A stretch of 64,000 nt of DNA, from positions 1 through 64,000 of IMG/VR virus record IMGVR_UViG_3300042914_002334; one strand, written 5' to 3'. The number at the start of each line of letters is the position of its first letter. The stretch's first letter is position 1. This stretch comes from a virus. Under the pieces are notes generated by a model. The model had not been told where the DNA came from. It saw only the letters and a program-made list of their open reading frames with translations, and did no database searches. This document shows, in pieces, positions 18,167 through 35,666 of the stretch. The position numbers and the translations under genes were made by a program.

Positions 18167-20671
18167 TTAGAAGTTCAAGCCTGCTGTGAACCCATACCAG
18201 TTAGTTCCACCATCGTGTGTTACCAAAGTAAGAATGTCGGTCTTGCTTCCAGTGGTAGTTAGTGTCGGAGCAGTTCCTCCAGACCATTTAACAGAACCTG
18301 GCCAAGCAATAGTTTTTGAACCCGCCGCGTCTTGATTGACAAACAATGTCATACTATAAACACGACCACTAGCGGGCACATTGCTTAGTGTTAAAGTAGT
18401 AATGCTGGCATTCATAGTAATGTTAAACACGTTGCTCAAACTACAATCAAGTGTAGTGCTTGCAGAAGCAGTCACATTAGTACGAGTTTCTGTGTAGTTA
18501 GTACCGAATGTCAATCCACCACTTAGTGTCAGCGAACTTAATGTGCCCACGCTGGTTAGTGAACTACTTACAACATTGCTTGCCAATGTAGTTCCAGTTA
18601 GTGAGTTGGCGTCGGCGTTAGAAGCAGCAGCAGCCCAAGTTGGAACTCCACCGCTGACTGTTAGAACTTGATTGGAACTACCAATTGCTAACTTGTTTAG
18701 AGTATTTGAACCACTTGCATATAACAAATCACCAGTTGTCCAACTACTTTGTGCAGTACCACCATATGTAGCATCAACAACAGTACCTTGCCAAATACCA
18801 GTACCGATTGTACCAACGCTGGTTAAACTAGAGCCAGTAACGCCAGAACCTAATGTTGTCGCATTTAGTACACTGGTACCGTTAATGTAAAATGCTTTGC
18901 CACTGGCTAGGTCTAAGTGTTCACTGCTTGTCCACGCATCAGTTGAATCGACCCAATTAAATGTCTTGTCTGTTGCACCCTTTAATGTAATACCACCGCC
19001 GTCTGCTGTTATATCTGTAGGAGTAGCCACATCGCCCAATACAATGTTTTTATCATCAACCACTAACGTGGTGCTGTTAATTGTAGTAGTAGTACCATTG
19101 ACCGTTAAGTTTCCAGTTACAGTTAAGTTAGTACCAACTGTGGCGCTTCCACTTGTGCTGATGTCTGCAAAATTAGCAGTTCCAGTGAACGTTGGACTGG
19201 CAGAACGAACAGTGCTTCCAGTTCCAGTTGATGTAGTGGTTCCAGTTCCACCGTTTGCTACTGCTAATGTTCCAGTTATGTCACTTGCAGAGACTGAAGT
19301 TGGCATATTCAACGCGGTTAGCGTTGGACCTGTAGTGCTGTTTGTACCAAATACAGAATAGTTTCCACCACGAACATATACAGAACCTGCCGGACCGTAA
19401 ACTGTATAGCCGGAACCAAGAGAAACGTTAAACGCACATCCAGTGGCGACAAACGTTGATGTTGATGAAACAGAAACTCCATTACCGTTTGCTTTAGTAG
19501 AATTAAACGCTGAATAGCCGACATTTATTGTGCTTGTTCCTGCCAATGTTAATACATTTGTAGATGTGGCTGTTGTTAATTGAATTACTCCAAGTGTACA
19601 AGTTGTGTTTGTAAACTTCCAAGCATCACCGGTACTTGCAGAATTGGAGTTAATGTTTGAAATAACTCCGTTGTTTACGTTAGTGATGTCTACGGCAGGT
19701 GCATTTCCGGCAGCCACTATTTCGCAGTATGGAACACGAAGTTTATTACCGCTGGCAGCAGTATTGTTTACTAATAGTGGTGATCCTGTTCCTGCTGTAT
19801 ACAATGAACAGTTGTTAACTTCTAAAGTAGTTGCGATTGTTCCAGATAGTACAACGGCGCTGTTATTGCTGCCTCCTGCAATGAATAAATTATTCAGCGT
19901 GACAGAGTTTTGAAATACTCCGCTATGATCAACTGCTCCATTAATTGTTACTGTTCCAGAAATTCTGGTTGCTTTTGATTTGCCTTCATATCCCCAAATA
20001 TTTGTTAAAAATCTTGTAATCGTGATGTCTTCAACGTAATTTCCTGGAGCCAACATAATCATAATTTGTTCACCAGAATTTGATCCTTGTGGGAAATTAG
20101 TGTTGATGTAACTTAATGCGGCGCCGATTGTTAAGAATGGTCTGGTAATACTGCCGTCTCCGGTGGTGTCATTCCCACCCTTTGACACATTAATAACTTG
20201 AGTTACTCCTAATGAAGACCAACTGGTTGTTGTTCCGTTTGTAGTCAGTACTTTTCCAGAATTGTTTGTTTGACTTGGAAAAGCATCTACTGAACCCCAA
20301 CTTACTACAGACCCATCTGTTGTAAGAAACTTACCACTGTTAGTGATCTGAGTAGGAACAAGTGCATTGATTGCATCGCTGACAGTTGTGGACCCAGTAC
20401 CGCCATTTGCTATGGCTAATGTTCCAGCAAGAGTAATTGTTCCGCTGGCAGTAACTGGACCTCCACTTGTAGTAAGTCCTGTAGTTCCTCCGCTTACTTC
20501 TACACTGGTAACAGTTCCGCTTGTTTGACCACCAACTACGATACCACCAGCGGTTGTTCCATCGCCAACATATAGTCGTTGCGTGTCAGTAGTAAAAATT
20601 AACTCACCCGTCGCCGGAGTGATGTTTGTTCTATTTGTGCTTAAGCCTCTTCTTAGCTGTAATGATGGCAT
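18167..20671 (-). CDS. fibre protein: Mtd_N-like N-terminus, beta-helix (pectin-lyase-like) domain, C-terminal cap domain
   Basis: MPSLQLRRG..GELIFTTDTQRLYVGDGTTAGG; VSKGGNDTTGDGSITRPFLTIGAAL..LAPGNYVED; C-terminal WPGSVKWSGGTAPTL..DILTL..GGTNWYG. Confidence 0.8.
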   Translation of the reverse strand: MPSLQLRRGLSTNRTNITPATGELIFTTDTQRLYVGDGTTAGGIVVGGQTSGTVTSVEVSGGTTGLTTSGGPVTASGTITLAGTLAIANGGTGSTTVSDAINALVPTQITNSGKFLTTDGSVVSWGSVDAFPSQTNNSGKVLTTNGTTTSWSSLGVTQVINVSKGGNDTTGDGSITRPFLTIGAALSYINTNFPQGSNSGEQIMIMLAPGNYVEDITITRFLTNIWGYEGKSKATRISGTVTINGAVDHSGVFQNSVTLNNLFIAGGSNNSAVVLSGTIATTLEVNNCSLYTAGTGSPLLVNNTAASGNKLRVPYCEIVAAGNAPAVDITNVNNGVISNINSNSASTGDAWKFTNTTCTLGVIQLTTATSTNVLTLAGTSTINVGYSAFNSTKANGNGVSVSSTSTFVATGCAFNVSLGSGYTVYGPAGSVYVRGGNYSVFGTNSTTGPTLTALNMPTSVSASDITGTLAVANGGTGTTTSTGTGSTVRSASPTFTGTANFADISTSGSATVGTNLTVTGNLTVNGTTTTINSTTLVVDDKNIVLGDVATPTDITADGGGITLKGATDKTFNWVDSTDAWTSSEHLDLASGKAFYINGTSVLNATTLGSGVTGSSLTSVGTIGTGIWQGTVVDATYGGTAQSSWTTGDLLYASGSNTLNKLAIGSSNQVLTVSGGVPTWAAAASNADANSLTGTTLASNVVSSSLTSVGTLSSLTLSGGLTFGTNYTETRTNVTASASTTLDCSLSNVFNITMNASITTLTLSNVPASGRVYSMTLFVNQDAAGSKTIAWPGSVKWSGGTAPTLTTTGSKTDILTLVTHDGGTNWYGFTAGLNF

Positions 20672-20684
20672 CTTTTTCTCCTAA

Positions 20685-23600
20685 TTAAAATGAGCCCATA
20701 TCTAATGTGAACCCTGCTGGTTGATCGAAGGTTCCAAAATCTAATCCGCCAGCGGAAGAAATAGTAGCCCAACTTAACACTCCCGCGCCGTCCGTGGTTA
20801 AATATTTACTATTATTACCAGTCTGACTTGGCAATAAATTGTTAGCAGCGTCTGCTGCCGTTGTTGCACCGGTTCCGCCTTGTGCAATACTAAGTGCTGT
20901 TGTCAGTCCACTTATACTTGTAATGTCGCTATTGGCACCACTTGCCGCCGCACTTAGATTATTACGTGCAGTCGAGGCATCAGTTGCTCCAGTACCGCCG
21001 TTTGCTACTGGCAATGTTCCAGATACTTGTGTAGTCAAACTTACATCACTTAGTGTACCGCCTAATGTTAGATTTCCACTGGTAGTAACGGAACCAGTTA
21101 AAGTAATACCGTTTATGCTTCCTGTTCCTCCAACACTGGTAACAGTTCCATTGCTCGCTACATCCCAACTTAGTGTTCCACTACCGTCAGTCTTCAAGAA
21201 CTTTCCAGTGTGTGTTGCTTGATTTGGAAGTAAGTTAGTTATGGTGTTGACAGTTAAATCTACTGTTACAGAACCAGTACTGGCACTTACACTAACACTG
21301 TTGCTGCCGGCAGCGATTGAAGTAACGCCAGTGTTACTTATAGCGTTATTGATTATACTAATTCCAGTACCAGCACTATAAGTTCCAGGCCCACCAAACT
21401 GAGTGAATACTATGTTGCTGGTACCGATAGTAATGGTGCCAGTAGTGTTCATTACCCACTGTGTTCCACTCTGCGTACCCTCTTGAATATAGGTTGCATC
21501 TCCGGCTATTACTTCACCAGTGGCATCAAAATCACCCGCACGACTTAAAGTCCAAGGATTACTTGTTTGAGTTACGATATAGATGCCGTTTTGTTTGGCG
21601 TCAGTTTGATTTTTAACAAGAACGCGGTCGTTTACATTTAACGTTACGCCATCAATTGTTGAAAGTTCTTCAGAACCAATCAAAGTGGCTCCTACTCCAT
21701 TGCTACCATTGCCATAAGTCGCAGACAAATTAGATGTAGTAGTCACACGACATGCCAGATGTACATTTAATCCACTTGCAATATTGTCAACATACTGTTT
21801 TGTCGCAGCACCAAGTCCTGTACTTGGATCGGCATTCAATATTAGTGCGCCAGTCATTGTGTCGCCGGCAATATTTACTGCACCTAAATTACTACGTGCT
21901 CCAGCAGCATCAGTTGCTCCAGTTCCGCCGTTTGCTACTGCTAATGTTCCTGCAAGTGTAATTGTTCCACTACTGGTAATTGGTCCACCGCTTGTTGTTA
22001 GTCCCGTGGTTCCACCACTTAGTGCTACGCTTGTAACCGTGCCAGCGCCAGCAGAAATTGTGGTCCAGGTAGGAGCACTACTACTTCCATTACTCGTTAA
22101 TACTTGTCCGCTTGTTCCGTAATTTGCGCCACTTAAACCCCATGCTCCAGATGGTATTATTCGTAGTCGTTCAGTATTTACAATATTAAAATACAAACTA
22201 CCATTTCCACTTACGCCAGATCCACTTTTTAGTGTTACATCACCGCCAGTAGACGGAAGACCAACATCCGCAAGCGCCCCGGCCCCGCCTGTTATAGTTA
22301 CACTACCACCCTGTCTGTAGACACTGGCTCCGCCAGTTATATTGATTGATCCACCCTGCCCGGCTGCGGAGCCGGCGCCATTAGGGAAACTTCCTGCTGT
22401 TATACTAATACTTGAGTTTGAAGTTCCCGCTATTGTAAATGGACTTCCGGCTATTGTTAGTTGATTTGTTCCATTATACGTGAGACTGCTGCTACCAGTT
22501 AGTGATCCGGCGCTGTTATAAATTAGTTGCGTATTAGAACCTGCTGTTGTGGTTGGAGTCGCCCAAGTGGGAACACCACCGCTAACGGTTAATACTTGTC
22601 CAGTTGTTCCTATAGTGCGCTTAGTCAATGTGTTAGTAGCACTGGCATATAAAATATCTCCAGTAGCGTATGTAGTTTGACTGGTTCCGCCGTTTGCTAC
22701 TGCTAATGTTCCTGCAAGTGTAATTGTGCCGTTTGTGGTAATTGGTCCTCCACTTGTTGTTAGACCTGTAGTTCCTCCGCTAACTGCAATACTCGTTACG
22801 GTCCCAACTCCGCCAGCGGCCGCCCATTTGACTCCTTCTGTTGTAGTAGAATCGGCAGCAAGAACTTGTCCATCGGAACCAGCGGTCAATCTTACATTAT
22901 TAGTTCCGTTAAAGACGATAATGTCGCCTTTTGTTGTTAGCGGAGATAACCCATCAAAGGCTCCAGTTTTAGATGTAGCACCAGTTCCACCCTGTGCAAT
23001 ACTTAGTGCAGTGGTCAGACCACTTATACTTGTAATGTCGCTGTTAGCGCCGCTCTTTGCAGCACTTAGATTGCTACGTGCAGTGGCAGCATCAGTAGCA
23101 CCAGTTCCACCGTTTGCTACTGCTAATGTTCCAGCAAGAGTAATTGTTCCACTACTTGTGATTGGGCCGCCACTTGTAGTTAGTCCAGTTGTACCTCCAC
23201 TTAATGCTACACTGGTTACTGTTCCAAGTCCACTCAGTGTTTGCCAAGTAGGAGCACTACTGCTTCCACCACTCATCAACACTTGACCGTTTGTTCCATA
23301 GTTGGCGCCGCCAAGTCCCCACGCTCCAGCCGAAGTAATACGCAATCTTTCTGTTAGCGTTTCTCCAGTTGAGATAAAAACAGAACCTGATCTAAATGAC
23401 CCCGAACCGGCTTGTAGATATACATCGCCGCCGGCGCCATAATATGGTGCCCCTGGACCGCCCTTGATATAAACATTTCCTGGGTCTCCTCCTACTACCG
23501 AGGTATTTCCCGATTGTCCGGCAACTACGATAATATCAGAGCCTCCACTAGCAGTGTTGGCTCCGGGTGCACCAGCAATAGTAAATGTCCCTTCGCTTAA

Positions 23601-23999
23601 TCCAACTGTGAGAGTTGAACTGCTGTAACTCATTAATGATGTTGCATCAAATGCACCGCTGTTGTTAAACAGTAGTTGTCCCGATGATCCAGCAAGAGAA
23701 GAACGCCCAGTTCCACCCTGTGCTACACTTAATGCTGTTGTTAGACCAGTTAAACTTGTAATATCACTGTTTGCACCACTCTTTGCAGCACTTAGATTAC
23801 TACGTGCAGTCTCGGCATCACCTGCTCCAGTTCCACCGTTTGCAAGAGCCAGTGTTCCCTGAGTGATATTACTTGCGTTAGACGCAAAATTTTTAGTCGC
23901 AGCGTCTTGTGCGTTAGTTGGGTCAGCCAAGTCAGTAATTGGAGCATCAGATACACTAATACCCGTCGTAGTTGTAAATGGAACCTTAATACTACTCAT
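20685..23999 (-). CDS. fibre shaft protein with doubled C-terminal DxGxF motif
   Basis: GGTTGLTTSGGPIT..GTLAVANGGT x3, GANSDITS x3, RVLVKNQ domain; ends LDFGTFDQPAGFTLDMGSF. Confidence 0.8.
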   Translation of the reverse strand: MSSIKVPFTTTTGISVSDAPITDLADPTNAQDAATKNFASNASNITQGTLALANGGTGAGDAETARSNLSAAKSGANSDITSLTGLTTALSVAQGGTGRSSLAGSSGQLLFNNSGAFDATSLMSYSSSTLTVGLSEGTFTIAGAPGANTASGGSDIIVVAGQSGNTSVVGGDPGNVYIKGGPGAPYYGAGGDVYLQAGSGSFRSGSVFISTGETLTERLRITSAGAWGLGGANYGTNGQVLMSGGSSSAPTWQTLSGLGTVTSVALSGGTTGLTTSGGPITSSGTITLAGTLAVANGGTGATDAATARSNLSAAKSGANSDITSISGLTTALSIAQGGTGATSKTGAFDGLSPLTTKGDIIVFNGTNNVRLTAGSDGQVLAADSTTTEGVKWAAAGGVGTVTSIAVSGGTTGLTTSGGPITTNGTITLAGTLAVANGGTSQTTYATGDILYASATNTLTKRTIGTTGQVLTVSGGVPTWATPTTTAGSNTQLIYNSAGSLTGSSSLTYNGTNQLTIAGSPFTIAGTSNSSISITAGSFPNGAGSAAGQGGSINITGGASVYRQGGSVTITGGAGALADVGLPSTGGDVTLKSGSGVSGNGSLYFNIVNTERLRIIPSGAWGLSGANYGTSGQVLTSNGSSSAPTWTTISAGAGTVTSVALSGGTTGLTTSGGPITSSGTITLAGTLAVANGGTGATDAAGARSNLGAVNIAGDTMTGALILNADPSTGLGAATKQYVDNIASGLNVHLACRVTTTSNLSATYGNGSNGVGATLIGSEELSTIDGVTLNVNDRVLVKNQTDAKQNGIYIVTQTSNPWTLSRAGDFDATGEVIAGDATYIQEGTQSGTQWVMNTTGTITIGTSNIVFTQFGGPGTYSAGTGISIINNAISNTGVTSIAAGSNSVSVSASTGSVTVDLTVNTITNLLPNQATHTGKFLKTDGSGTLSWDVASNGTVTSVGGTGSINGITLTGSVTTSGNLTLGGTLSDVSLTTQVSGTLPVANGGTGATDASTARNNLSAAASGANSDITSISGLTTALSIAQGGTGATTAADAANNLLPSQTGNNSKYLTTDGAGVLSWATISSAGGLDFGTFDQPAGFTLDMGSF

Positions 24000-24040
24000 A
24001 TTTTCTTTCCTTATCCAATATAGTATTTATTCCATTCTCG

Positions 24041-25747
24041 TCAAACATTTATACAGGTTCTAATGGCACGAATTGTGGTAACTGCATTTGTTGGAGTTAC
24101 TCTTAATTGAATTGTTCCATTAGTGTAATTTGCATTAAATGTTGCGAGTGCGGTGCCAGTGTTTATGTTAGCAAATTCAGTGTAATATGCCACGGAATCA
24201 TCATGTGTAATCAACATTTCACTTGTTTGATGAGAACTTCCACTACTTACTTGTATAACATACTTTACAGTTCTATAGGTCGTTCCACTAACACTATCTA
24301 TTACTTGATTGGCAGCATTTGTAGTAGTAATTAGAGTGATCGTTCCAATATTTCCTTGATTTACACTCAATACCGGAGCATAAAGTGTTCCTGTGTTTGG
24401 ATTATATTTTAGATTAGCGGTTGTGTTGAGTGCCTGTGCTGTAGTTGTATTGTTTTCAATAAACGGCAAATAAAAATTAGCATCAGTAGTTACTGCTCCG
24501 GTATTTTGAACCGTGTTTGCTGATCCAACTGATCCAGTGATATCGCCAGCACTAATTGTGCTGCTACTGATTAGTGCAGTTCCATTACTTTTTATGTATC
24601 CAGCACTGAAACTTGTTTGTCCAGTTCCGCCCTGTGCAATACTGAGTGCAGTTGTTAAACCGCTTAGACTTGTAATATCGCTATTGGCTCCACTCTTTGC
24701 TACACTTAAATTAGTTCTTGCATCGCTGGCAGTTGTTGCACCAGTGCCTCCACTCGCTATTGGTAGAGTTCCACTAAATGATACAGTAATACCTCCAGTT
24801 GAGGCAGAAACTCCTATATTTGTTCCACCAGTCAAACTCGTAACGCCAGTGTTATTTACAGTTGTTCCGTCGATTGAAATCGCGGTTCCTGCTACAAATG
24901 TTCCTGGACCTCCAAACTGTGACCAAACAATTGCAGAACTGCCAATTGTTATTGTTCCAGAAGTGGACATTACCCAGTGAGTTCCAGCAAGAGTTCCTTC
25001 TTGAATATAAACAGCATCACCTGCTACTATCTCGCCAGTTGGACTACCATCGAAGTCTGATGCACGGGTTAGAACCCAATTATCCACCGTAGTGGTAACT
25101 ACATATATACCATTTTGTGATGTAGTTGATTGTGATTTTACAAGAACTCTGTCATTGGTTGTTAAGGTAACACCGCTGATTTGTGGCAAACTTCCAGTTC
25201 CGGTTAGTGTTGCTCCAACACCGCTGGTTCCATTATCGTAAGTTGCAGTTAGACTTGAAGAAGTCGCAGTTCTACAAGCCAAATGTATGTTAAGTCCAGT
25301 TGCAACATTATCAACATATTGTTTTGTTGCTGCATGCAGTGAAGAACTTGGATTTGCACTAAGAGTAAGTGCTCCAGTCATAGTATCGCCTGCTTTATTT
25401 ACTGGGGTATAACCAACTATGTTTTGTAGAGCTTCTGCTTGTGTAGTTGCTCCAGTTCCGCCCTTGCTTATAGATACCGTGTTTAGTGATAAACTAATGC
25501 TTCCACTTGTGGTTACGGGACTACCAGATACAGTCAAGTCGCTACTGCTGATACCAACACTGGTAACAGTTCCGCTGCCTCCGCCACCCCCGCCAGCGGC
25601 ATTTAACTGTTGTATTGAGTTGTCTGAACGCTTGTAAAACAATTTACCATCAGCGTAATTTATGGCTAACTCGCCATAATCCAAATCTTGTGCGGTTGGA
25701 ACTTTGCCTTGCACAGACGATTTTTTAATCGTTATTTTATTTGCCAT
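24041..25747 (-). CDS. fibre protein with gp37-N-like N-terminus
   Basis: Start moved to ATG 25747 (AGGTG RBS); MANKITIKKSSVQGKVP..GELAINYADGKLFYK; RVLVKSQ domain; C-terminal VIDS..YRTVKYVIQ beta domain. Confidence 0.8.
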   Translation of the reverse strand: MANKITIKKSSVQGKVPTAQDLDYGELAINYADGKLFYKRSDNSIQQLNAAGGGGGGSGTVTSVGISSSDLTVSGSPVTTSGSISLSLNTVSISKGGTGATTQAEALQNIVGYTPVNKAGDTMTGALTLSANPSSSLHAATKQYVDNVATGLNIHLACRTATSSSLTATYDNGTSGVGATLTGTGSLPQISGVTLTTNDRVLVKSQSTTSQNGIYVVTTTVDNWVLTRASDFDGSPTGEIVAGDAVYIQEGTLAGTHWVMSTSGTITIGSSAIVWSQFGGPGTFVAGTAISIDGTTVNNTGVTSLTGGTNIGVSASTGGITVSFSGTLPIASGGTGATTASDARTNLSVAKSGANSDITSLSGLTTALSIAQGGTGQTSFSAGYIKSNGTALISSSTISAGDITGSVGSANTVQNTGAVTTDANFYLPFIENNTTTAQALNTTANLKYNPNTGTLYAPVLSVNQGNIGTITLITTTNAANQVIDSVSGTTYRTVKYVIQVSSGSSHQTSEMLITHDDSVAYYTEFANINTGTALATFNANYTNGTIQLRVTPTNAVTTIRAIRTCINV

Positions 25748-25811
25748 TGTGTCACCTAATAAGGATGTCAAAGAAATAATAATTTCTTTAGTATTTGTAT
25801 TTAGCAGAAAT

Positions 25812-25842
25812 AAAAAAAAGAGAGAAATTAATTTCTCTCTTT
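25812..25842 (-). terminator. intrinsic terminator (AGAGAG family)
   Basis: AAAGAGAGAAAT-TA-ATTTCTCTCTTT with a T8 tract on the minus strand, just after the 25860 stop. Confidence 0.75.
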
Positions 25843-25859
25843 AAATATTGTTTGATATT

Positions 25860-27064: not shown

Positions 27065-28933
27065 TTAATACTCTCCGCCATCTATATCAGAGACGGCGGC
27101 AGTAATTGTTTGATCAACATAATACTTGTTTGTCAAATCATTATTAGCTAATCCAGTTGCATAGTCTGCGGCAACAGGACCAGCAATACTCATCTTGTTT
27201 GTTGTTTCTGAACCCTCTGGCGCTGCTAATGTCACTACAATGTCACCAGCCCCTGATTGTAAAGTAAGACCAGCAGTACCAATAATACTTAGTGTATCAC
27301 CGGGACCAGATTCTATCTGACTGGAACTACTGTTAGGTGCGTCAAATACAACATTATCAGTTTGAATTACCACACTTCCAGTTCCATTTGGAAGTAGTTT
27401 CAAGTCTGAATTTTCGCCTATGGTAGATATTGTTACGTCACCGTTAGCAGCAGTAGCAATCGTTGCTCCGCCAACAGTTAATGTATCAGTTGTTCCATTC
27501 CAAGCAAGTCCATCGACAGTAGAAACAGGATCAGTTCCATTTCCAAGTAGTATACTACCAGCAGTTAATGTTGATGCTCCAGTACCGCCTTTACTAACAG
27601 GTAGTGTTCCAGTTACTTTATCTGTTGTTAGATCAACAGCACCAGTAGCTAATTTAGCCGAAGTAATTGCTGCATCTTTAACTTGCAGTGCATCGCTACC
27701 ATTAACTTCAATAGTAGAATCATCTACTAAAACGTTAATTGTGTTGCCAGTATCCGATAATCCAGCACCCCATACATATGTTCCAGCACCACTAAATTGT
27801 ACCCACGTAACACTGTCAGTTCCAACACTAGATATAGTGGCCGTTTGTGTCCAACCCGTTGACTGCCAAGTTGATCCTTCTTTGACGTAAACTGCGGCAC
27901 CGTCAAATTCTGCTGGATCACTCATATCTTCTGCACGAACTGCTCCAGTTAATGAAACAATATAAATGCCATTTTGAGACGCGGTAGGTTGATTCTTAAC
28001 AAGAACACGATCACCAGATGCTAATGTTACACCGTCAACTGTATCTCCAGCCTTTAAGTCTGCCACTACCGTTATTGCCGCTGTAGTTGCGACTCTGACT
28101 GCATTTTTCCAAGACAGACCAGTTGTTAGTGCATCAACATATCCCTTAGTAACAGCGTGTGTAGAAGAAGACGGAGCACCAGTTATTGATACGCTATTGA
28201 ATGTGACATCAGCATCAGTTGCAACTGATTGTCCGATTGCAATTGCGCCGTCAGTAATCGTAACACCGGTTCCTTCTGTAAAAGCACCGCGAATATCAGC
28301 ATCTGTTACTTTAGTAAAGGTAAATATTCCAGTTGATGAACTGTAAGATATTGCTCCATAACCAGTTCCGCTATTAGCAGCACTTACGGCAGCCTGAGCG
28401 AGAGCGTTACTAAACCACTTGTTAGTTGCTCCTACTTCTTGAGAAATGTCATCTGTGTTTAGTGTTACACTGGAACCCAAATCAACTGACTTACCGTTAA
28501 TTGTAATACTCTTGTATGCCAACATAGTATTGGTAACAGTTCCAGTGTCGCCATTTCCAATTAAAGTTCCAGATGTTGATGGCAACGTGAAACTAGTTGT
28601 CCCGGCTGCTACTGGAGCTATTAAAGTAGCGGTTCCGCTTGTTGATCCAGAAAAAATGGCTGATGATAACCCGACGGCGCCAAGACCAGAAACATTCTTA
28701 GATGCGTCTATAATAACTGCTTTGCTCGCAGCAGCAGTACCAGCAGTTACATTGCTTAGTAGACCGGTGTAGTAGGCCCCGCCAGCTTCTACAATCTCTA
28801 CACTTGTTCCATTGGTGCTGCTACCAAAATATAACTTACCAGAACCAGATGAGTATGCTAACTCACCGAATGCTAAGCTTGTTGGTGCTGCTAAACCAGT
28901 AGAACGCTTGATTTTAATAGTTGATGATGACAC
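27065..28933 (-). CDS. fibre protein with N-terminal gp37-N-like domain and C-terminal DGGEY
   Basis: GTG start, AGGAG RBS; TIKIKRSTG..LAFGELAYSSGSGKLYFG; RVLVKNQ domain; ends DIDGGEY. Confidence 0.8.
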   Translation of the reverse strand: MSSSTIKIKRSTGLAAPTSLAFGELAYSSGSGKLYFGSSTNGTSVEIVEAGGAYYTGLLSNVTAGTAAASKAVIIDASKNVSGLGAVGLSSAIFSGSTSGTATLIAPVAAGTTSFTLPSTSGTLIGNGDTGTVTNTMLAYKSITINGKSVDLGSSVTLNTDDISQEVGATNKWFSNALAQAAVSAANSGTGYGAISYSSSTGIFTFTKVTDADIRGAFTEGTGVTITDGAIAIGQSVATDADVTFNSVSITGAPSSSTHAVTKGYVDALTTGLSWKNAVRVATTAAITVVADLKAGDTVDGVTLASGDRVLVKNQPTASQNGIYIVSLTGAVRAEDMSDPAEFDGAAVYVKEGSTWQSTGWTQTATISSVGTDSVTWVQFSGAGTYVWGAGLSDTGNTINVLVDDSTIEVNGSDALQVKDAAITSAKLATGAVDLTTDKVTGTLPVSKGGTGASTLTAGSILLGNGTDPVSTVDGLAWNGTTDTLTVGGATIATAANGDVTISTIGENSDLKLLPNGTGSVVIQTDNVVFDAPNSSSSQIESGPGDTLSIIGTAGLTLQSGAGDIVVTLAAPEGSETTNKMSIAGPVAADYATGLANNDLTNKYYVDQTITAAVSDIDGGEY

Positions 28934-28985
28934 TTTTTTCTCCTAAGTTAGGTATGGTATATATCCTAAAGTATTTATCCAAAAT

Positions 28986-29015
28986 AAAAAAAAGAGAGTG
29001 ATAACTCTCTTTTTT
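28986..29015 (-). terminator. intrinsic terminator (AGAGAG family)
   Basis: AAAAAAGAGAGT-GATA-ACTCTCTTTTTT. Confidence 0.75.
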
Positions 29016-29045
29016 ATTAAATCAAACTAAGTTGATTAGATTTGA

Positions 29046-30935
29046 TTAGTATGTGCCGCCGTCAAGGTCAACATCTACAACACCGTCAGTGACAGTGAAG
29101 TGATTTGGATTGAATGCAGCAACACCCTTTGTTCCAGTTGTTGTAGCAACAGCAACACTTACGGTTACTGTGTTAGCAGTAACAGCAGTAGAGATTGCTC
29201 CACTTCCAGAAATTGCTAGAGATTCGCCTAGAGCAACAGCGTCAGAACCAGAACCACCAGTTAGAGTGATTGAGCTATTAGCCAACTTAGCGTTGGTAAC
29301 AGCACCGTCAGCGATCTTTGCTGTTGTTACAGCGTCACTAGCGATCTTGACTTCTGTTACAGCAGCAGAATCTAGTTCTGGTGTTCCAACACCACCTGCC
29401 TTGATTGCTACATGGCCACCAGCAACAGAGAAGTTAGTTGAATAGAAACTTGCAATACCCTTGTTAGTATCACTTGCGTCTTCGCCGCTTACTGTGATTG
29501 TTACGTCGCCGTTAGAGATTGTAACAGCGGTATCAATGCCTTCTCCGCCAGCTACTGTTAGTGTCTTGCCGTTAGCAAATGTTTCGCTTCCTGTGTCACC
29601 GGCAGCAGTGAAACTTGTAGAGATGCTTGCAGTGCTTACTGCGGTTACTAGACCCTTAGCGTTAACAGTTACAACTGGAACTGCTGAAGATGAACCATAT
29701 GTTCCAACGTTTGTGTTGACTGTAGCTAGCTCTAGAGCTAGATCAACTGCCGCTGAACCGTCAAAACTTACAGCGGAAGCAGAAGCATCACCACTAGCAC
29801 TGAAGTTACGTGCTGTCTGTAGTGCGGTTGCGGTGTCAGCGTTACCTGTTAGAGCACCAGTAACATTGCCATAAACTCTACCGACGGTTAGATCCTTGTT
29901 TAGGTTCCAACGATCATCTGCACTTGAGTATGTTAATGTCGCTGGAGTTTCTGGACCTTCAACTGTTAGACCAGCACCATTAGCAGCAGCAGCAGTAGTA
30001 GCGCCCTTGGAAACAACGATGTTCTTGTCGGCAACTTCTAGAGTTGTAGAGTTAACTGTTGTTGTAGTACCATTTACAGTTAAATTGCCAGTTACAGTCA
30101 ATGCGCCTGTAACAGTAGCTGCACCAGAAATGCTAATACTTTCAGCAGTAATGTCATTAGAGTTTAGTGTGCCATCAACGGTAACGTTGTTGAACGTTAC
30201 GTTAGAAGTTGTACCAACTGCTTGACCAATAGCAACTTGACCGTCGGTGATAGTAACACCAGTTCCAGCACTGAAGTGTGCGCGAACTTCGCTTGCGCTT
30301 GGGCCAGTATAAGTAATTACACCAGTAGCAGCGTTGTATGACATGCTGCCATCGCCGCCTGCGTCAGTTACACTGATTGAGTCGCGAGCACGAGTTTGAG
30401 TGAAATATAGATTAGTAGTACCTTCAGCAATGTCGTCTGTGTCTAGATTGTTCAACAATTGTGAATCACTAAATGAGAACTTACCAGTAGCACTATCGTA
30501 TGTTAGTGCATCACTGCTTCCAGCAGCAACTCCTACTGAATCACGAGCACGAGTCTGTGTGAAGTATAGATTTGCATTTAGTCCAGTTCCCTCAGCTAGA
30601 GAGTTGGTGTTATGATTACTGATATCAGAAACTGTACCAGTTACATTACCAGTTAATGCACCAACGAAACTTGATGCGGTAACTGTTCCCAGGTTACCAA
30701 TATTTCTGCTTGCATCAACGATAAGAGCCTTGCTTGCGCTTGCTGTACCAGCAGTTACATCTAGCAAGTCTGCTAAATATGCGCCACCGATTAATGTGAC
30801 GGAAGAAGTTGTTCCATCTGTGCTGCTACCAAAATATAGCTTACCAGAACCAGATGAGTATGCTAACTCACCGAATGCTAAGCTTGCTGGCACTGAAGAG
30901 CCAGTAGAACGCTTGATTTTAATTGTATTTGCCAC
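29046..30935 (-). CDS. fibre protein with N-terminal gp37-N-like domain and C-terminal DGGTY
   Basis: GTG start, AGGAG RBS; NLYFTQTRARD x2, AVTxxKIA repeats; ends DLDGGTY. Confidence 0.8.
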   Translation of the reverse strand: MANTIKIKRSTGSSVPASLAFGELAYSSGSGKLYFGSSTDGTTSSVTLIGGAYLADLLDVTAGTASASKALIVDASRNIGNLGTVTASSFVGALTGNVTGTVSDISNHNTNSLAEGTGLNANLYFTQTRARDSVGVAAGSSDALTYDSATGKFSFSDSQLLNNLDTDDIAEGTTNLYFTQTRARDSISVTDAGGDGSMSYNAATGVITYTGPSASEVRAHFSAGTGVTITDGQVAIGQAVGTTSNVTFNNVTVDGTLNSNDITAESISISGAATVTGALTVTGNLTVNGTTTTVNSTTLEVADKNIVVSKGATTAAAANGAGLTVEGPETPATLTYSSADDRWNLNKDLTVGRVYGNVTGALTGNADTATALQTARNFSASGDASASAVSFDGSAAVDLALELATVNTNVGTYGSSSAVPVVTVNAKGLVTAVSTASISTSFTAAGDTGSETFANGKTLTVAGGEGIDTAVTISNGDVTITVSGEDASDTNKGIASFYSTNFSVAGGHVAIKAGGVGTPELDSAAVTEVKIASDAVTTAKIADGAVTNAKLANSSITLTGGSGSDAVALGESLAISGSGAISTAVTANTVTVSVAVATTTGTKGVAAFNPNHFTVTDGVVDVDLDGGTY

Positions 30936-31029
30936 TTTGTTTTTCTCCTAGGTTAAAGTGTTTTGTGATAAAAAATTTCTATTAGAAATTCTATTTTTAT
31001 TTATCACGATATATACTTTTTGAGTATTT

Positions 31030-31509
31030 TTATGTGTAATTTCCAGCATCTAAAGTAATACCAGTCAATGCTGTTCTTGCCACCCATTTTTGCGTGGCAA
31101 CATCATATTGCAATACTGATCCGTCTGTAATTGGTGCAGCGGCATCAACATTTCCAATATCCTCTAATTTATTTACAGTAGAATTCACTGTAAATAAAGT
31201 CCAGTTGTCTTCCGAATTAGGCATAGATCCAGTAGTCGTGTTTCGACTCTGACCATTTAACAAACTGTATTTGTAGTAACTGTCAGGATCGCGAGTCACG
31301 CTTCCAACGGTGTATCCATTTTTAAGATACACCAACATACCCTCGGTCAGTCGCTGACCAGTTATGTTTGTTAATCTGTCACCTGCATCACCGCTGATAC
31401 TTTGTAAAGTACCACGAACTTCAGTGTCCAATACTATTGGATGATCGCCAGTTGAACTCCAAGTTCCAGTCCACGTATTTCTTGTTAAGCCGTCGTAATT
31501 TGTGCTCAT
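31030..31509 (-). CDS. small fibre adaptor protein ending DAGNY
   Basis: ATGA-coupled to upstream gene; LEDIGNVD..DGSVLQYD..KWV fibre motif; ends TLDAGNYT. Confidence 0.7.
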   Translation of the reverse strand: MSTNYDGLTRNTWTGTWSSTGDHPIVLDTEVRGTLQSISGDAGDRLTNITGQRLTEGMLVYLKNGYTVGSVTRDPDSYYKYSLLNGQSRNTTTGSMPNSEDNWTLFTVNSTVNKLEDIGNVDAAAPITDGSVLQYDVATQKWVARTALTGITLDAGNYT

Positions 31510-34500
31510 GATATACTCACATATGTTGTTCCAGGCTGCAAGGTTATGCCATACAGCGTGTATTGTTCAGCAACATATCCTGCTGGAGGGGTCGTTGGCT
31601 GCAAACTAACAGTGTTTCCAGATGTCACGCTTACATCCGATAACAACGATGAGGTTGGACCAGTTTTGAACGATGTTGGCTGACTTGCACTTGAGCGAAT
31701 GGCGAACCAAAATGCTCTTGGTGTGCTCTCAGAATTGGTTACGTTACCAGCAAATACTTTTACCGCATTTCCAAGTGCAGTAACTCCAGCAACAAAACTT
31801 GTTACAGTAACAATGTTTTCGACAGTCGGAGGACTACTTGTAGCAGCCGTAAATAACCACAAGCTTGGGTATGTAAATGTAGCACTGGCACTTGCAGTAG
31901 TTGAACTGAGGTTTGCAGTATATGAAGTTCCAGTTACACTTGCTGGGCGAGTAAATGTAGTAGAAACACTTACCGTTCTTGTAGTTGCTGTGTTATTTTT
32001 ATGTATAGGATCAGTAAATGTAAATGTTCCGCTTGCGGTAGCACTACTTGTAGTTCCGCCAACTGCGGTCACGCTATTAGCATAATTTGATGTGCTTGAC
32101 ATTCCAGTTACAGTAACTGTATATGCTACAGAGTTATAACTTTGTAGGAATGTGTTGCCAGTTAGACTTCCAAGTGTTGCGCTCAGTGTTGGCGTCGCCC
32201 AAGTAACTGATATATTAGCAGTTGACGTAGTATATTCAGCGGTGGTAGTTCCATTGTAGAAATTGAATGCTATGGTTCCTGCTGCACTTCCGCCTGCTAT
32301 AGTAGTGCTTGTTGATCTGATAAATGAATCGGCATCAGTTGTAAATGTCTGTGTCCAATCTACAGTTCCCGCTGGAGTAGCAGATTGACTTCCTGCGCTA
32401 AATGTATTCAATGCACTTATTGAACCATTTGTAGCAGTTATACTTCTAACGCTTGAGATATATTGATCGGTAATGTCATCTGGGTTTACTGCATTTACAG
32501 CAAACGATGTAATTGGTTGATCCCAACTTGGAGATGCTGGTGAAATCGTAGCACTGAGAGTTGGGGTAAAGGTAGCAAGCGTTAAACGAAGTTTGTTGTT
32601 AAAGAATTCTGCTACGCGAACTGGAGAAGTAGTCCCATTCTCTTTGTATCCAGTAAGAGTTCTGTATGTTCCACTTGTAGTCCAAATAAGAGGACTATTA
32701 TCAGTTTGTGTGGCAACATCTACCCAACTTAGTGTTCCTGCGCCATCTGTTCCTAGAACTTGACCGCTGGTTCCACCGCCAATACTTATGTTATTGACTC
32801 CCCCGAACGATACTTTGTTGCTTGTTGCCGTTACATTAGTTACGCCGCCCGGAGTTCCATTATTGTTGTATTGTAGTTGTCCGTTTGTGCCACCAACTAA
32901 TGATAGTGACACGGGCCCCCACTTCTGCGTGGCAGAATCATATGCAAGAATCTGTTTATCTTCTGGTGTGCCAACTACATCCAATAGAGCACTAAGTAAA
33001 CCAGATGTTGCTACCGTAGCAAATGTTGGTTTATTTTGTATATTGTTCCAAGTCAAATCTTCGCTAATTACGTAATTAGCATCGTTAGTGAATGTGCTTA
33101 GTCCAGGTGCTGTTCCAGTTATATTTTCCCAAGTTACACTTGATACTGTTATGTAATTCGAATCATTGGTAAATGTGCTTAGTCCAGGTGCTGTTCCAGT
33201 TATATTTTCCCAAGTTACATCTGTTAGTTTTATGTATCCAGTGATTGTGTTGTCGAATATTCCAACAGATGGCGCAGTGCCGGTAAGATTTTCCCAAGTA
33301 ACTGCATCTGATTTAATGTATCCAGCGGTGTTAGTAAAATCACTTAAATCAGTTGGTTTGTTTGTTAAATCATTATAATTACGACTTACACTAATTACGC
33401 CTTCTGTCGTGACATCTATATTAGCGCCTATCTTTACACCACCACGAACGGTAGAAGAGGCAACGGGAACAGGAATACTACTGGTCCAAGAAACATTCAA
33501 TCCATCAGTAATTAAGAACTTGTTCGACTGTCCCTCTTGTGCTGGCAATAAGTTATTGATTGCGGCAGTTGCATTAGTTGCTCCGGTTCCGCCGCTTTCT
33601 ACTGGTAGTGTTCCAGTGAATGATACTGTTATACCTCCAGTTTGTCCGCTAATTGCAATATTACTTCCAGCAGTAAGCGAGGTTACACCAGTGTTGTTTA
33701 TCGTGTTGTCAACGATGCTTATTCCGGTGCCAGCAGTATATACTCCAGCAGCACCAAACTGCGACCACTCGATATCACTCGTTCCAATTTCTATAGTTCC
33801 AGAAGTAACCATTATCCACTGAGTGCTCTTTTGTGTCACTCCGTTTTGTATGAATGTGAAATCGCCAGCACTTACTTCGTTTGCAAAACTGTTGTCAAAA
33901 TCACTTGCTCTAATTAGAGTCCATCCGGATGTGATTGATGCGAGTGTGTATATGCCATTTTGTTTTTCGTCTGTTTGATTTTTTACTAAAATTCTCTGAT
34001 TTAGTTGTATTGTGACACCATCTATTTGTGGGAATGCACCAGAGCCAGTAAGGGTTGCACCTATTCCAGAACTACCGTTGTTATAAGTTGCACTTAAATT
34101 AGTAGTAGTGGCAGCAACGCAAGCCAAATGAACATTTAATCCAGTGGCTACATTGTCAACATATTCTTTTGTTGCGGCTTCGTATGCGTTGATTGGGTTT
34201 GCATATAGAACCAATGGGCCAGTCATTGTATCGCCGCCGATATTTACTGGAGTAAACCCAAGTCCGCCAGTAATTTGACTTGTATTGATGTCAACCCATA
34301 CCGGACTTCCATCTAATGATGCCAATACTTTTCCGTTCGCTGATCCTTGTGATGGCAGCAAATTATTGATTGCTGACGCTGCGCTGGTTGCGCCGGTGCC
34401 TCCGTTAAATATGCCAAGTGTTCCGCCTACTGTAAATGTTCCAGTGGTCGTTATTGGACCGCCACTAAATGTTAGTCCAGTTGCTCCCGGGTCGATACTT

Positions 34501-34679
34501 ACTGATTTTACTGTTCCGTAATCTGGTTTTGCATTAAAGAAGTCAATTGCACCCAAATCAGTTTTGTAAAATAACTTCCCATCAGCGTAGTTGATAGCAA
34601 CTTCACCAAATGACAAATCGGTTGTTAAAGGCTGTTTACCACTAACACCCGAACTTTTTAATACAATCGTTGTTGTCAT
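31506..34679 (-). CDS. fibre protein with gp37-N-like N-terminus (1057 aa)
   Basis: MTTTIVLKSSGVSGKQP..GEVAINYADGKLFYK; RILVKNQ domain; TWENxTGTAP repeats (81-bp DNA period near 33090-33220). Confidence 0.8.
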   Translation of the reverse strand: MTTTIVLKSSGVSGKQPLTTDLSFGEVAINYADGKLFYKTDLGAIDFFNAKPDYGTVKSVSIDPGATGLTFSGGPITTTGTFTVGGTLGIFNGGTGATSAASAINNLLPSQGSANGKVLASLDGSPVWVDINTSQITGGLGFTPVNIGGDTMTGPLVLYANPINAYEAATKEYVDNVATGLNVHLACVAATTTNLSATYNNGSSGIGATLTGSGAFPQIDGVTIQLNQRILVKNQTDEKQNGIYTLASITSGWTLIRASDFDNSFANEVSAGDFTFIQNGVTQKSTQWIMVTSGTIEIGTSDIEWSQFGAAGVYTAGTGISIVDNTINNTGVTSLTAGSNIAISGQTGGITVSFTGTLPVESGGTGATNATAAINNLLPAQEGQSNKFLITDGLNVSWTSSIPVPVASSTVRGGVKIGANIDVTTEGVISVSRNYNDLTNKPTDLSDFTNTAGYIKSDAVTWENLTGTAPSVGIFDNTITGYIKLTDVTWENITGTAPGLSTFTNDSNYITVSSVTWENITGTAPGLSTFTNDANYVISEDLTWNNIQNKPTFATVATSGLLSALLDVVGTPEDKQILAYDSATQKWGPVSLSLVGGTNGQLQYNNNGTPGGVTNVTATSNKVSFGGVNNISIGGGTSGQVLGTDGAGTLSWVDVATQTDNSPLIWTTSGTYRTLTGYKENGTTSPVRVAEFFNNKLRLTLATFTPTLSATISPASPSWDQPITSFAVNAVNPDDITDQYISSVRSITATNGSISALNTFSAGSQSATPAGTVDWTQTFTTDADSFIRSTSTTIAGGSAAGTIAFNFYNGTTTAEYTTSTANISVTWATPTLSATLGSLTGNTFLQSYNSVAYTVTVTGMSSTSNYANSVTAVGGTTSSATASGTFTFTDPIHKNNTATTRTVSVSTTFTRPASVTGTSYTANLSSTTASASATFTYPSLWLFTAATSSPPTVENIVTVTSFVAGVTALGNAVKVFAGNVTNSESTPRAFWFAIRSSASQPTSFKTGPTSSLLSDVSVTSGNTVSLQPTTPPAGYVAEQYTLYGITLQPGTTYVSIS

Positions 34680-34691
34680 TTATTTTTCCTT

Positions 34692-35666
34692 TTAACCAAA
34701 TGTTCCGCCATTTATCGAACTTACCAAGTTGTCAACATAATATTTATTGACCAAATCTGCATCTGCTAACCCATTAGAATACTGCACTGGTGTTGGACCG
34801 ACAACCGTAACTTTATTGATCGCATCGCTTGCTAATATCATAGCAGTATCTCCTGACTGTGATATTAGATTTAATCTCGAATTTGTTGCTTGTATGTTTA
34901 ATTCTTCGCCTGCATTTGTTTGAAGCGTTGAACTGCCGGTGCCGCTAACTACTATTTTTCCAGTTCCATTAGGTAACAACACCAAATCAGAATCTTCTGC
35001 CCCGGCAGATATCGTGGCATTATTTCCGTTTATTACTACTGGTCTTGTTCCGCCGGCAGTTAGTGTATTTTGTGCTGGATCAAAAGTAAGATTTGAAGAT
35101 TGTCCTACAAATTCTGCTCCAGTTCCATACATTAGTTGATTCTGAACTAATGAAGTTACGCCAGTTCCACCCCGACTGACCTGAACTGTTTCGAGATTGA
35201 TAGTTACTTCTTGATCTGTAACTGTAATTGATAGACCGCCAGTTGCTGTAAAAGTAAGTGCTTGTCCTATTTTTTCCCAAGCACTACCATTGTAAAATTC
35301 TGCAAAGGGTGGAGTAGTCTGATTGTTTATGCGAACCATTCCAACCTGAGCATCTTCTGGTCTGTGTGCGTTGTTTCCAACAGGAATACTAAGTGCTTTG
35401 TTTCCGTTAAACTTTAATACACCCGATTGAAGCAAACTTATTTCAGTTCCATCGATGTCAAAAACGCCATCTGCGCGACTTATAGAAATGTTTCCAGTTT
35501 CAGCAGTTATTGAACTGCCTACGATATTCGCATATTCTGTATCAGTTACTTGTCTTGCACTGAACGTAGAAGTAACGGAATCATAAAATATGAATCCGCC
35601 CTCTTTTCCAAATTGAATCTCATCCGATATGCCAGATAAGCCATAATTTTTTGTATAAGTGGTCAT
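34692..35666 (-). CDS. virion fibre/adaptor protein ending NGGTFG
   Basis: SIPVGNNAHRP..GMVRIN..EFYNGSAW motif; C-terminus homologous to 27065..28933; perfect TATAAATA upstream. Confidence 0.7.
   Translation of the reverse strand: MTTYTKNYGLSGISDEIQFGKEGGFIFYDSVTSTFSARQVTDTEYANIVGSSITAETGNISISRADGVFDIDGTEISLLQSGVLKFNGNKALSIPVGNNAHRPEDAQVGMVRINNQTTPPFAEFYNGSAWEKIGQALTFTATGGLSITVTDQEVTINLETVQVSRGGTGVTSLVQNQLMYGTGAEFVGQSSNLTFDPAQNTLTAGGTRPVVINGNNATISAGAEDSDLVLLPNGTGKIVVSGTGSSTLQTNAGEELNIQATNSRLNLISQSGDTAMILASDAINKVTVVGPTPVQYSNGLADADLVNKYYVDNLVSSINGGTFG

Follow-up and report, generated by a model that had tools for sequence, protein, structure and literature searches.

Introduction

Phage host choice is decided by tail fibers, and in T4, the long tail fiber is built from four proteins. 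One of these, gp36, ends in ..QDFGYY, and another, gp37, starts with ..IQFKRS..GELAINL; both ends, as given in a preliminary description of the locus studied here, proved correct when the sequences were checked. Five divergent genera of the Straboviridae share the C-terminal motif, hereafter termed the plug (for example, as IDFGSY, LDYGTF, and IDFGTF), and in them the distal piece, encoded by the next gene, begins with ..I[QK]F[KL]RS..GELAINL (hereafter, the socket). In T4, gp36 is a trimer and attaches to the N-terminal part of gp37 (PMC3004832). In phage Aeh1, in which gp36-37 is fused, the plug motif is absent at the fusion. The literature searched contained no paper on a sequence signature of the gp36-gp37 joint, and no solved structure of it was found in the PDB; the atomic picture given below is a prediction.

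Here, we describe a fiber gene cluster of a large uncultured phage, contained in a 64,000-nt window (positions 1 to 64,000 of the IMG/VR virus record IMGVR_UViG_3300042914_002334), in which joints of this kind probably recur. The nearest cultured relative is the Pseudomonas jumbo phage PA5oct (Arenbergviridae), with a clamp loader that is 53% identical. Searched at near identity, the DNA of the cluster matched cultured phages only as 50-nt scraps in cyanophages.

Results

All genes of the cluster lie on the minus strand (Table 1). At four of the five proposed junctions, the gene that follows a plug gene is a socket gene (324>1057, 159>629, 629>622, and 1104>834), while at the fifth (622>576), a 376-aa gene intervenes, and the gene coordinates thus match the order claimed in the preliminary description. 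The 1057-aa gene starts 12 nt past the 324-aa stop, and the 834-aa gene 13 nt past the 1104-aa stop.

Table 1. Plug and socket genes of the window, with the intervening gene; coordinates are window positions.
Feature	Coordinates	Strand	Evidence
324-aa adaptor, C-terminal plug	34692..35666	-	translation
1057-aa fiber, N-terminal socket, no plug	31506..34679	-	profile 72.6 bits (profile seed)
159-aa small adaptor, plug	31030..31509	-	translation
629-aa double-ended segment, socket and plug	29046..30935	-	translation, homologue alignment, model
622-aa double-ended segment, socket and plug	27065..28933	-	translation, homologues, model
376-aa gene, neither plug nor socket, between the 622- and 576-aa genes	25860..26990	-	
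~568-aa fiber (listed as 576 aa), socket, no plug	24041..25747	-	alignment, profile, PHROG 1699
1104-aa fiber, no socket, tandem double plug	20685..23999	-	translation
834-aa fiber, Mtd_N socket, no plug	18167..20671	-	Pfam, PHROG
1365-aa protein, divergent orphan socket	55431..59516	-	Mtd_N E 0.014; outside the cluster coordinates

All five plug C-termini claimed earlier could be read from the translations. Specifically, [DN]xGx[FY] closes the fiber proteins of 324 aa (..SSINGGTFG, within ..NKYYVDNLVSSINGGTFG), 159 aa (..ITLDAGNYT), 629 aa (..VDLDGGTY, within ..GVAAFNPNHFTVTDGVVDVDLDGGTY), 622 aa (..SDIDGGEY, within ..NKYYVDQTITAAVSDIDGGEY), and 1104 aa (..GGLDFGTFDQPAGFTLDMGSF, with the motif twice in tandem). 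One residue trails the motif in two of the five (324 and 159 aa); in a tally of 96 plugs, 95 had no such residue. Over the whole 141-kb contig (44,773 aa), the motif is present 48 times, and chance would place it within two residues of a C-terminus in 0.33 proteins contig-wide and in 0.06 proteins among the 16 fiber-like ones, against the five fiber proteins observed; the motif definition came after inspection of the data. Residues D625, G626, and G627 of the 629-aa protein are invariant among 16 aligned homologues with an overall identity of 38%, and a DGGx[YF] ending was present in 35 of 36 homologues that had been recruited by the socket alone. None of the plug proteins matched the Pfam family Phage_T4_gp36 (PF03903), the terminal motif being the sole shared feature, and a homologue search with the C-terminal 68 residues of the 622-aa protein found nothing beyond the cluster of the query itself.

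Six N-termini (1057, 629, 622, 576, 834, and 1365 aa) align as a single gp37-N/Mtd_N-like domain with the consensus [ILV]x[ILV]K[RK]S..P..L..GE[LV]A....KL[FY]. The individual forms include TIVLKSS..FGEVAINYADGKLFYK (1057 aa), ..TIKIKRSTG..FGELAYSSGSGKLYF (629 aa, nearly identical to that of 622 aa), KITIKKSS..YGELAINYADGKLFYK (576 aa), and ..ISKIINRKGS..SGELGWAYDEKKLYIG (1365 aa, where the upstream gene has no plug). HMM comparison, one of the checks proposed in the preliminary description along with structure prediction and a survey of adjacency in other genomes, linked the sockets to gp37-N through a custom profile and one of them to Mtd_N above the Pfam cut-off. The 834-aa protein alone exceeded the gathering cut-off of Pfam Mtd_N (PF18454; 47.1 bits, 2.2e-12, cut-off 26.3). 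The 629-aa (12.6 bits) and 1365-aa (15.7 bits, E 0.014) proteins scored below it, and the 1057-, 622-, and 576-aa proteins had no match to this family; all five are under the Pfam cut-off and are tied to Mtd_N only via our custom profile. In a leave-one-out profile, the 1365-aa protein scored 15 bits, making it a weaker socket. With every T4-like sequence left out of its making, the socket profile still recovered all T4-like gp37 N-termini at 25-35 bits (E <=1.6e-5, Z=1e5) and nothing else among ~250 ORFs, which supports, at the sequence level, the two motifs forming the same kind of joint as gp36-C/gp37-N. The preliminary description had counted seven sockets; these six stand, while the 615-aa protein had no match to the profile at any threshold and is not counted. 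By eye, the 615-aa N-terminus could be a very divergent Mtd_N.

The 324-aa protein carries an N-terminal anchor domain common to the unsplit fibers of relatives and to PA5oct gp179. It aligns with a 984-aa unsplit fiber (L005) in two blocks, with its residues 6-150 pairing with 5-150 of that fiber and its residues 156-312 with 705-865. Its plug replaces the covalent tip of that fiber (~119 aa), exactly at the site of tip attachment in relatives; by alignment, then, it is a split form of the unsplit fiber, and the 1057-aa protein is the probable distal piece docking on this adaptor. The same arrangement of these two genes is conserved in a 341-kb relative (L011), in which the order and the ends of the cluster are the same, while the middles differ in length. 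There, the 1104-aa protein corresponds to one of only 410 aa that keeps both ends, double plug included; the 576-aa protein corresponds to one of 329 aa with both ends the same; the homologue of the 159-aa protein ends in ..SELDGGAF; that of the 834-aa protein combines Mtd_N with Phage_phiTE_241_C; and another gene, encoding 499 aa with PKD and Laminin_G_3, stands in place of the 376-aa gene.

The 159-aa protein had no tblastn match in cultured phages, and small proteins like it (..YDxxxxKW..[DN]GGx[FY]) precede GELAYS-type sockets in many viral contigs. The 576-aa ORF (TTG at 25771) most likely starts at an internal ATG (25747, MANKITIKK), as does its counterpart in the 341-kb relative; residues 16-99 fall in PHROG 1699, "long tail fiber protein distal subunit," and the resulting ~568-aa fiber is a probable chain end. 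The 834-aa protein, which matches PHROG tail-fiber C-terminal families and has a C-terminal tail-fiber domain, is the probable distal piece docking on the 1104-aa protein. The 376-aa protein, with no match in Pfam or PHROG, comprises a right-handed parallel beta-helix (pectin-lyase/NosD-like; Atlas structure matches at TM 0.6-0.66) behind a proline-rich linker, and is possibly a polysaccharide-degrading enzyme.

We modeled a single pair, 629>622, which is one of the five proposed junctions, as three C-termini plus three N-termini. The complex scored an ipSAE of 0.84 (0.82, 0.85, and 0.84 in separate runs), against 0.02 for the best of three controls, with a partner pLDDT of 91 and at least 95% contact agreement between runs. 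Among 80 solved complexes, 58 score at or above the pass mark, as do 2 among 110 mismatched pairs; these rates apply only roughly here because of the user-supplied alignments and the 3+3 assembly. In the model, the interface comprises residues 610-614 and 622-629 of the 629-aa protein and residues 1-12, 15, 17-18, and 26 of the 622-aa protein. The terminal plug strand (622-629) is predicted to run parallel to the first socket strand (residues 4-12, TIKIKRST), with D625 near K7 and the terminal Tyr near K9, R10, S11, P17, and A26, while residues 610-614 form a second patch against socket residues 1-4. No relevant PDB entry turned up in sequence searches with gp36, the N-terminus of gp37, or the socket, so that, as judged by sequence, the high score does not derive from a solved complex of this kind. 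The model is blind to the choice among 629>622, 629>629, and 159>622 because the contact residues of the two sockets are almost all the same.

Adjacency was also surveyed without bias, by scanning viral contigs for the pattern [LIVFM]DGGTY-TAA, which represents one codon-specific plug version only. At least 120 stretches matched; where the match closes an ORF of 100 codons or more (53 matches), a socket gene comes next in 36. The plug-to-socket gene-pair table (52/38/24/444), which spans 42 sequence clusters, gave an odds ratio of 25 (p 3e-30), whereas a permuted control pattern returned 13 stretches and zero sockets; samples collected from the socket side had a plug gene upstream there too. 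These counts are underestimates, since some canonical sockets of the Mtd_N kind (L042 and L046) escaped our profile. Sockets are N-terminal in 90 of 90 proteins, beginning at Met1, with internal socket domains in 0 of 90 and no fused plug-socket ("Rosetta stone") proteins. When simple regular expressions were used to correlate plug and socket sub-types, most plugs were left unclassified. Chains of three to four pieces are present in unrelated small contigs.

Discussion

We propose, with a probability of roughly three in four, that this cluster encodes multi-piece tail fibers held by non-covalent, trimer-on-trimer joints of the T4 gp36-gp37 type. As a pattern in sequence, the joint is real; it is probably physical as well, with binding, stoichiometry, and the choice of partners being predicted. 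Because plug C-termini are followed by a gene that starts with a socket, separate fiber pieces are probably clipped end to end. The proximal piece would end in a beta-hairpin-like module finishing in [DN]-x-G-x-[FY]-COOH, and the distal piece would begin, at residue 1, with a ~45-residue gp37-N/Mtd_N-like cap. Conserved basic residues of the socket may hold the carboxylate left free at the C-terminus as well as the conserved Asp, a contact that would account for the need to have the motif at the very end. Under the most likely topology, the baseplate-anchored 324-aa piece would carry the 1057-aa piece; the 159-aa piece would carry 629 and/or 622, which in turn would carry 576; and the 1104-aa piece would carry 834, leaving the plug-less 1057-, 576-, and 834-aa proteins as putative distal, receptor-facing ends.

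Alternatively, the socket proteins might be independent fibers, their Mtd_N-like N-termini docking straight on the baseplate or tail, with DGGxY serving as a folding, capping, or chaperone-recognition element and adjacency reflecting the mere clustering of fiber genes. Such fibers would account for the 1365-aa socket with no plug gene upstream, for a family of 77- to 79-aa mini-proteins that end in ..IDGGTY with no socket after them, and for the 24 sockets without an upstream plug gene and 38 plug genes without a socket next in the scan loci, although some of these non-pairs are profile misses or are interrupted by a small gene. Nevertheless, the odds ratio inside fiber-rich loci and the strict plug-then-socket order exceed clustering alone, the model sets plug on socket with high confidence while its controls fail, and gp36 of T4 does bind the N-terminal region of gp37 (PMC3004832), such that we regard independent fibers as quite unlikely. 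The 24 sockets without an upstream plug gene and the 1365-aa orphan suggest that sockets may also dock on other partners. It is hardly credible that a plug gene and its socket gene are two parts of one gene, split by sequencing or assembly error or bridged by recoding, with no joint between proteins. This would fit the correspondence of the 324-aa protein to an unsplit 984-aa fiber and the fusion in Aeh1, but each junction, in this cluster and in independent assemblies alike, has a stop, 12-112 nt of spacer, and a start codon of its own for the second gene; sockets invariably begin at Met1; unsplit fibers have neither plug nor socket sequence at the fusion point; and T4 gp36 and gp37 are known as separate proteins.

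A further reading accepts the joint and makes it promiscuous, with one plug serving several sockets and the 629- and 622-aa segments polymerizing or competing, which would yield very long or mixed fibers. The plug core hardly varies among the five proteins, the 629- and 622-aa sockets are identical at nearly all modeled contact residues, and six sockets face five plug proteins, one of which has tandem motifs. However, the second contact patch (residues 610-614) could supply specificity, and the gene order conserved in the 341-kb relative, together with chains elsewhere that end plug-less, fits defined, finite chains; promiscuity therefore appears rather unlikely to us. The very long or combinatorial appendages of the preliminary description are not supported. 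Since three socket proteins (1057, 576, and 834 aa) are plug-less and resemble chain ends, a set of short chains is the simpler reading, and several fibers of two to four pieces are more likely. Nor is there support for this phage itself having generalized the joint, as had been suggested: the multi-joint design is widespread, as seen in the abundant matches to a single codon-specific plug and the multi-piece chains of unrelated contigs, and the joint is common among uncultured phages rather than special to this one.

Our results suggest that a terminal DxGx[YF] and an N-terminal cap form a simple code for junctions between fiber proteins, and that many uncultured phages use the joint several times per genome. 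If confirmed, fiber architecture (that is, which protein is the proximal piece and which the tip) could be read from gene order by annotators, the exchange of distal receptor-binding pieces without disturbing the baseplate anchor would be explained, and fiber-swapping in laboratory phages would gain a defined interface. A bolder and doubtful possibility is that peptide and cap are a near-universal, low-specificity "click" connector, for which distal pieces compete and to which double-ended pieces add repeatedly, giving fibers of mixed composition or variable length. Were that true, one genome would produce mixed fibers as built-in host-range bet-hedging, and unrelated phages would have a ready-made interface for swapping receptor-binding pieces.

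Among cultured phages, PA5oct encodes homologues of the 1223-, 696-, and 324-aa proteins in the same order (gp179-gp182), identified as virion proteins by MS, but its gp179 (894 aa) is unsplit and, unlike here, the region has neither plug nor socket. Branched receptor-binding protein systems of jumbo and Klebsiella phages have been described with T4 gp10-like branching and anchor domains. The connector here is instead a terminal peptide plus a cap, and none of the nine proteins had a Pfam match to a gp10-like or anchor-branching domain, a sequence-only and thus weak test. Clustered fiber genes that form a composite adsorption apparatus are likewise a feature of phiKp24, RaK2/phiK64-1, and CBA120-type phages (PMC9700779, PMC10253068). 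Bordetella phage BPP-1 shares Mtd_N with the 834-aa protein through Mtd, the founding member of that family (PDB 1YU0), and mtd lies 15 nt after a putative tail-fiber gene, bbp9, whose product has a plug-like end (..ADLGGIA); this end lacks the aromatic residue and falls outside the motif, unlike the plugs here, and Mtd is a receptor binder diversified by a DGR, with nothing of that kind seen in the present locus. The closest parallel is with T4, in which, as here, a DxGx[YF] plug is followed by a socket in the next gene, with the sockets being detectably homologous. The plug proteins here, unlike the T4 proximal piece, are not gp36 homologues, and both partners are known to be trimers in T4, whereas trimer-on-trimer docking is predicted here. 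Finally, T4 uses the joint once, whereas the present cluster appears to use it five times, with two of its proteins double-ended.

Results

The 141-kb contig, whose first 64 kb form the window, comes from an uncultured phage and is probably a piece of a jumbo-phage genome, since metagenomic contigs of 239 and 341 kb carry its closest relatives. The clamp loader shares 53% identity with its counterpart in the Pseudomonas jumbo phage PA5oct. On the minus strand, large Gly/Thr/Ser-rich structural genes run without a break between 41.5 kb and 0.8 kb. PA5oct carries homologues of the first three proteins of this cluster (1223, 696, and 324 aa; fibre proteins are named here by length) in the same order, annotated as virion proteins and detected by mass spectrometry. 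Two giant ORFs, neither with a plug or a socket (defined below), extend the cluster downstream of the 834-aa gene. Further, a DnaJ and ClpB/Hsp104-type gene pair, which also adjoins the fibre cluster in two related viral contigs (L006 and L007), may aid the folding of very large fibre proteins.

Two terminal elements recur in the cluster: a C-terminal [DN]xGx[FY] peptide (the plug) and an N-terminal gp37-N/Mtd_N-like domain (the socket), which the preliminary description had read as the joints of a fibre chain. Its sequence statements were all reproduced, except for the last of its seven sockets. Specifically, the five plug proteins (324, 159, 629, 622, and 1104 aa, the last with a tandem plug) all end in the motif with 0 or 1 trailing residue. 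The contig's 44,773 residues contain 48 copies of the motif, and chance would place it at the C-terminus of 0.33 proteins contig-wide, or of 0.06 among the 16 fibre-like proteins, as against the five found. Six proteins (1057, 629, 622, 576, 834, and 1365 aa) open with one alignable domain of ~45 residues, the 1365-aa protein retaining 15 bits in a leave-one-out test of the socket profile, but the 615-aa protein had no match with that profile. The 834-aa protein also passes Pfam Mtd_N, whereas the other five sockets fall under the Pfam cut-off. In four pairs, the socket gene comes next after the plug gene, across a spacer of 12-112 nt; in the fifth, 622 to 576, the 376-aa gene lies in between. 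The 629- and 622-aa proteins are double-ended pieces (socket and plug), and the 1365-aa socket is an orphan. A second short motif, N-x-G-[KR]-[YF]-L-(x)-x-[DN]-G-x(4-5)-W, recurs internally in several fibre proteins and, across viral contigs, just upstream of many plugs (..GKILQSNG..YGDIDGGTY).

Coordinates of the features discussed (window coordinates unless a contig or locus is named)
Feature	Position	Strand	Remark
3518-aa ORF	807-11363	-	Giant ORF of fibre cluster; N-x-G-[KR]-[YF]-L motif at residues 3013 and 3292
2224-aa ORF	11434-18108	-	Giant ORF; homologue in the 341-kb relative (L011) has Laminin_G_3 domains
834-aa protein	18167-20671		N-x-G-[KR]-[YF]-L motif at residue 111
1104-aa protein	20685-23999		N-x-G-[KR]-[YF]-L motif near its end
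376-aa beta-helix protein	25860-26990	-	Between 622-aa and 576-aa genes
ClpB/Hsp104-type double AAA+ chaperone, full-length, 759 aa	44012-46291	-	Directly downstream of DnaJ homologue
DnaJ homologue, 269 aa	46281-47090	-	Directly upstream of ClpB/Hsp104-type gene
84-aa ORF	G000:C1 (the phage's own contig) 89023-89277	-	Outside window; opens with a different, widely seen fibre N-terminal motif, ..GTQANDRQGDPLRVAFQKINSNFTELY
Aeromonas phage Aeh1 gp36-gp37	L017 2501-5483		Fused in one ORF
Bordetella phage BPP-1 bbp9-mtd	L158 3438-6125		Mtd follows putative fibre gene bbp9 after 15 nt

Conservation points to the same two ends. Searching with residues 1-70 of the 622-aa protein found 36 proteins of 482-893 aa and, although this query was the socket alone, 35 of the 36 end in DGGx[YF]; the exception, of 482 aa, may be a truncated gene call. 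Invariant positions in a 16-sequence alignment (mean column identity 38%) gather at both ends, including D-G-G at the C-terminus. Gene order, plugs, and sockets are all the same in the 341-kb relative, while the middles change drastically (1104 to 410 aa and 576 to 329 aa). Such fixed ends on variable shafts are what a docking module would predict. The 324-aa protein suggests how one joint arose: its residues 6-150 and 156-312 align with 5-150 and 705-865 of an unsplit fibre, 984 aa long, from related contigs, in which a tip of ~119 residues follows covalently after the shared ..NKYYVD. Here, the chain stops 12 residues past NKYYVD, with a plug, and the 1057-aa socket protein is encoded next. 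The plug replaces the covalent tip and thus sits exactly at the attachment place of the distal module. To judge from these alignments, the arrangement would be a fission event; PA5oct gp179 has the unsplit form.

For one pair, three copies of 629 residues 560-629 and three of 622 residues 1-110, each with its own alignment, were modelled together. The score was 0.84 (0.82, 0.85, and 0.84 over runs), against 0.02 for the best of three controls, with a partner pLDDT of 91 and at least 95% of contacts common to the runs; the tool's mark, which 58 of the 80 solved complexes and 2 of the 110 mismatched pairs attained in its calibration, is only roughly valid for a 3+3 assembly with user-supplied alignments. 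The predicted interface comprises residues 622-629 and 610-614 of the plug protein and residues 1-12, 15, 17-18, and 26 of the socket protein. Modelled contact pairs rise together (624 with 5-7, 626 with 7-10, and 628 with 9-12), which would place the plug's terminal strand parallel to the IKIKRS strand. The plug of 629 is thus predicted to bind the socket of 622, and the model cannot tell 629>622 (plug>socket) from 629>629 or 159>622, since the two sockets have nearly the same contact residues.

The 376-aa protein is a right-handed beta-helix in its Atlas model, and the 341-kb relative has a different gene at its position. Its N-terminus has a short strand (..KRITVQNVK..) and then a poly-proline linker. 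Speculatively, this strand might suffice to bind a plug, in which case this possible enzyme may be carried, too, by the 622-aa protein through its plug.

An IMG/VR scan for DNA encoding [LIVFM]-D-G-G-T-Y and then TAA, which selects by plug only, returned at least 120 stretches. Among the matches listed (81 in 80 loci), 53 lie at the end of an ORF of 100 or more codons, and 36 of these have a socket gene within 400 nt downstream, at least 250 nt beyond the stop being available for only 45 of the 53. With the codons permuted at unchanged composition (xGDGTY-TAA), a control pattern gave 13 stretches, one ending a long ORF and none with a socket next. Among all adjacent gene pairs in the scan loci listed, a socket gene came next after 52 plug genes and not after 38, as against 24 and 444 for genes lacking a plug (odds ratio 25, p 3e-30), with a profile that misses some canonical Mtd_N sockets. 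The 52 pairs form 42 sequence clusters, and many carry plugs outside the scan pattern (DGGNF, NGGNY, NGGTF, DAGDY). The socket was N-terminal in 90 of 90 cases, and the plug lacked a trailing residue in 95 of 96. Loci selected by socket alone also had a plug gene upstream and formed chains (203 > 727 > 291 > 229 aa in L139; 87 > 894 aa in L143), and in an unrelated small contig a 424-aa protein (..IDGGTY) directly precedes a 476-aa socket protein. Hence, the design is widespread, and the claim that this phage had itself generalised the joint was not borne out.

As for the plug and socket genes that stand unpaired, several contigs place a small coiled-coil gene between plug and socket, and sockets may have partners besides plugs. 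In L071, L073, L042, and L024, this protein (~110-125 aa, MDEKLINEYINNL..-type) directly follows some plug genes, with the socket gene beginning just past it in L071 and L073; perhaps it acts as an assembly factor. Mini-ORFs of 77-79 codons (..ASPTFTGTVT..TGTIDGGTY; L019, L039, L043, L051, L060, L097, and others) make up a family that ends in a perfect plug, and is followed by a 300-600-aa Gly-rich protein, not a socket gene.

Discussion

Judging from the order of the genes and from the proteins that are plug-less, we propose a topology in which the fibre pieces would be joined through 324>1057, through 159>629 and/or 622>576, and through 1104>834. The double-ended 629 and 622 pieces may follow one another in series, compete for the 159-aa adaptor, or polymerise. 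The very long or combinatorial appendages envisaged in the preliminary description go too far, while its view of the joint as being of the T4 gp36-gp37 type was right. The T4 ends it named are correct: gp36 ends in ..VIKDSVQDFGYY and gp37 starts MATLKQIQFKRS..GELAINL. Divergent Straboviridae keep both ends (gp36-like C-termini IDFGSY, LDYGTF, QDFGYYS, and IDFGTF), and the next gene starts with a socket in every case, including that of a 496-aa 'gp36'. Scored with the socket profile, whose seeds come only from this phage and its metagenomic relatives, every T4-like gp37 N-terminus reaches 25-35 bits (E <=1.6e-5, notional database of 100,000), with no other match among ~250 ORFs. No T4-like sequence seeded this profile, and the socket is thus homologous to the N-terminus of gp37. 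The proteins that carry the plugs were also considered as gp36 homologues and rejected; they have no Pfam match to gp36, and only the terminal module is common.

The N-terminal region of gp37 is bound by trimeric gp36 (PMC3004832), and sequence searches of the PDB returned no chain of gp36 or of the N-terminus of gp37. At the Aeh1 fusion point, neither plug nor socket sequence is recognisable. In BPP-1, home of the founding Mtd_N protein, Bbp9 ends in ..ADLGGIA, which is plug-like but without the aromatic residue. We found no description of a plug-socket sequence code or a modelled interface in the literature, and the interest of the joint rests on these two, apparently new, elements. We read the finding as the T4 gp36-gp37 joint in fivefold use, with double-ended segments.
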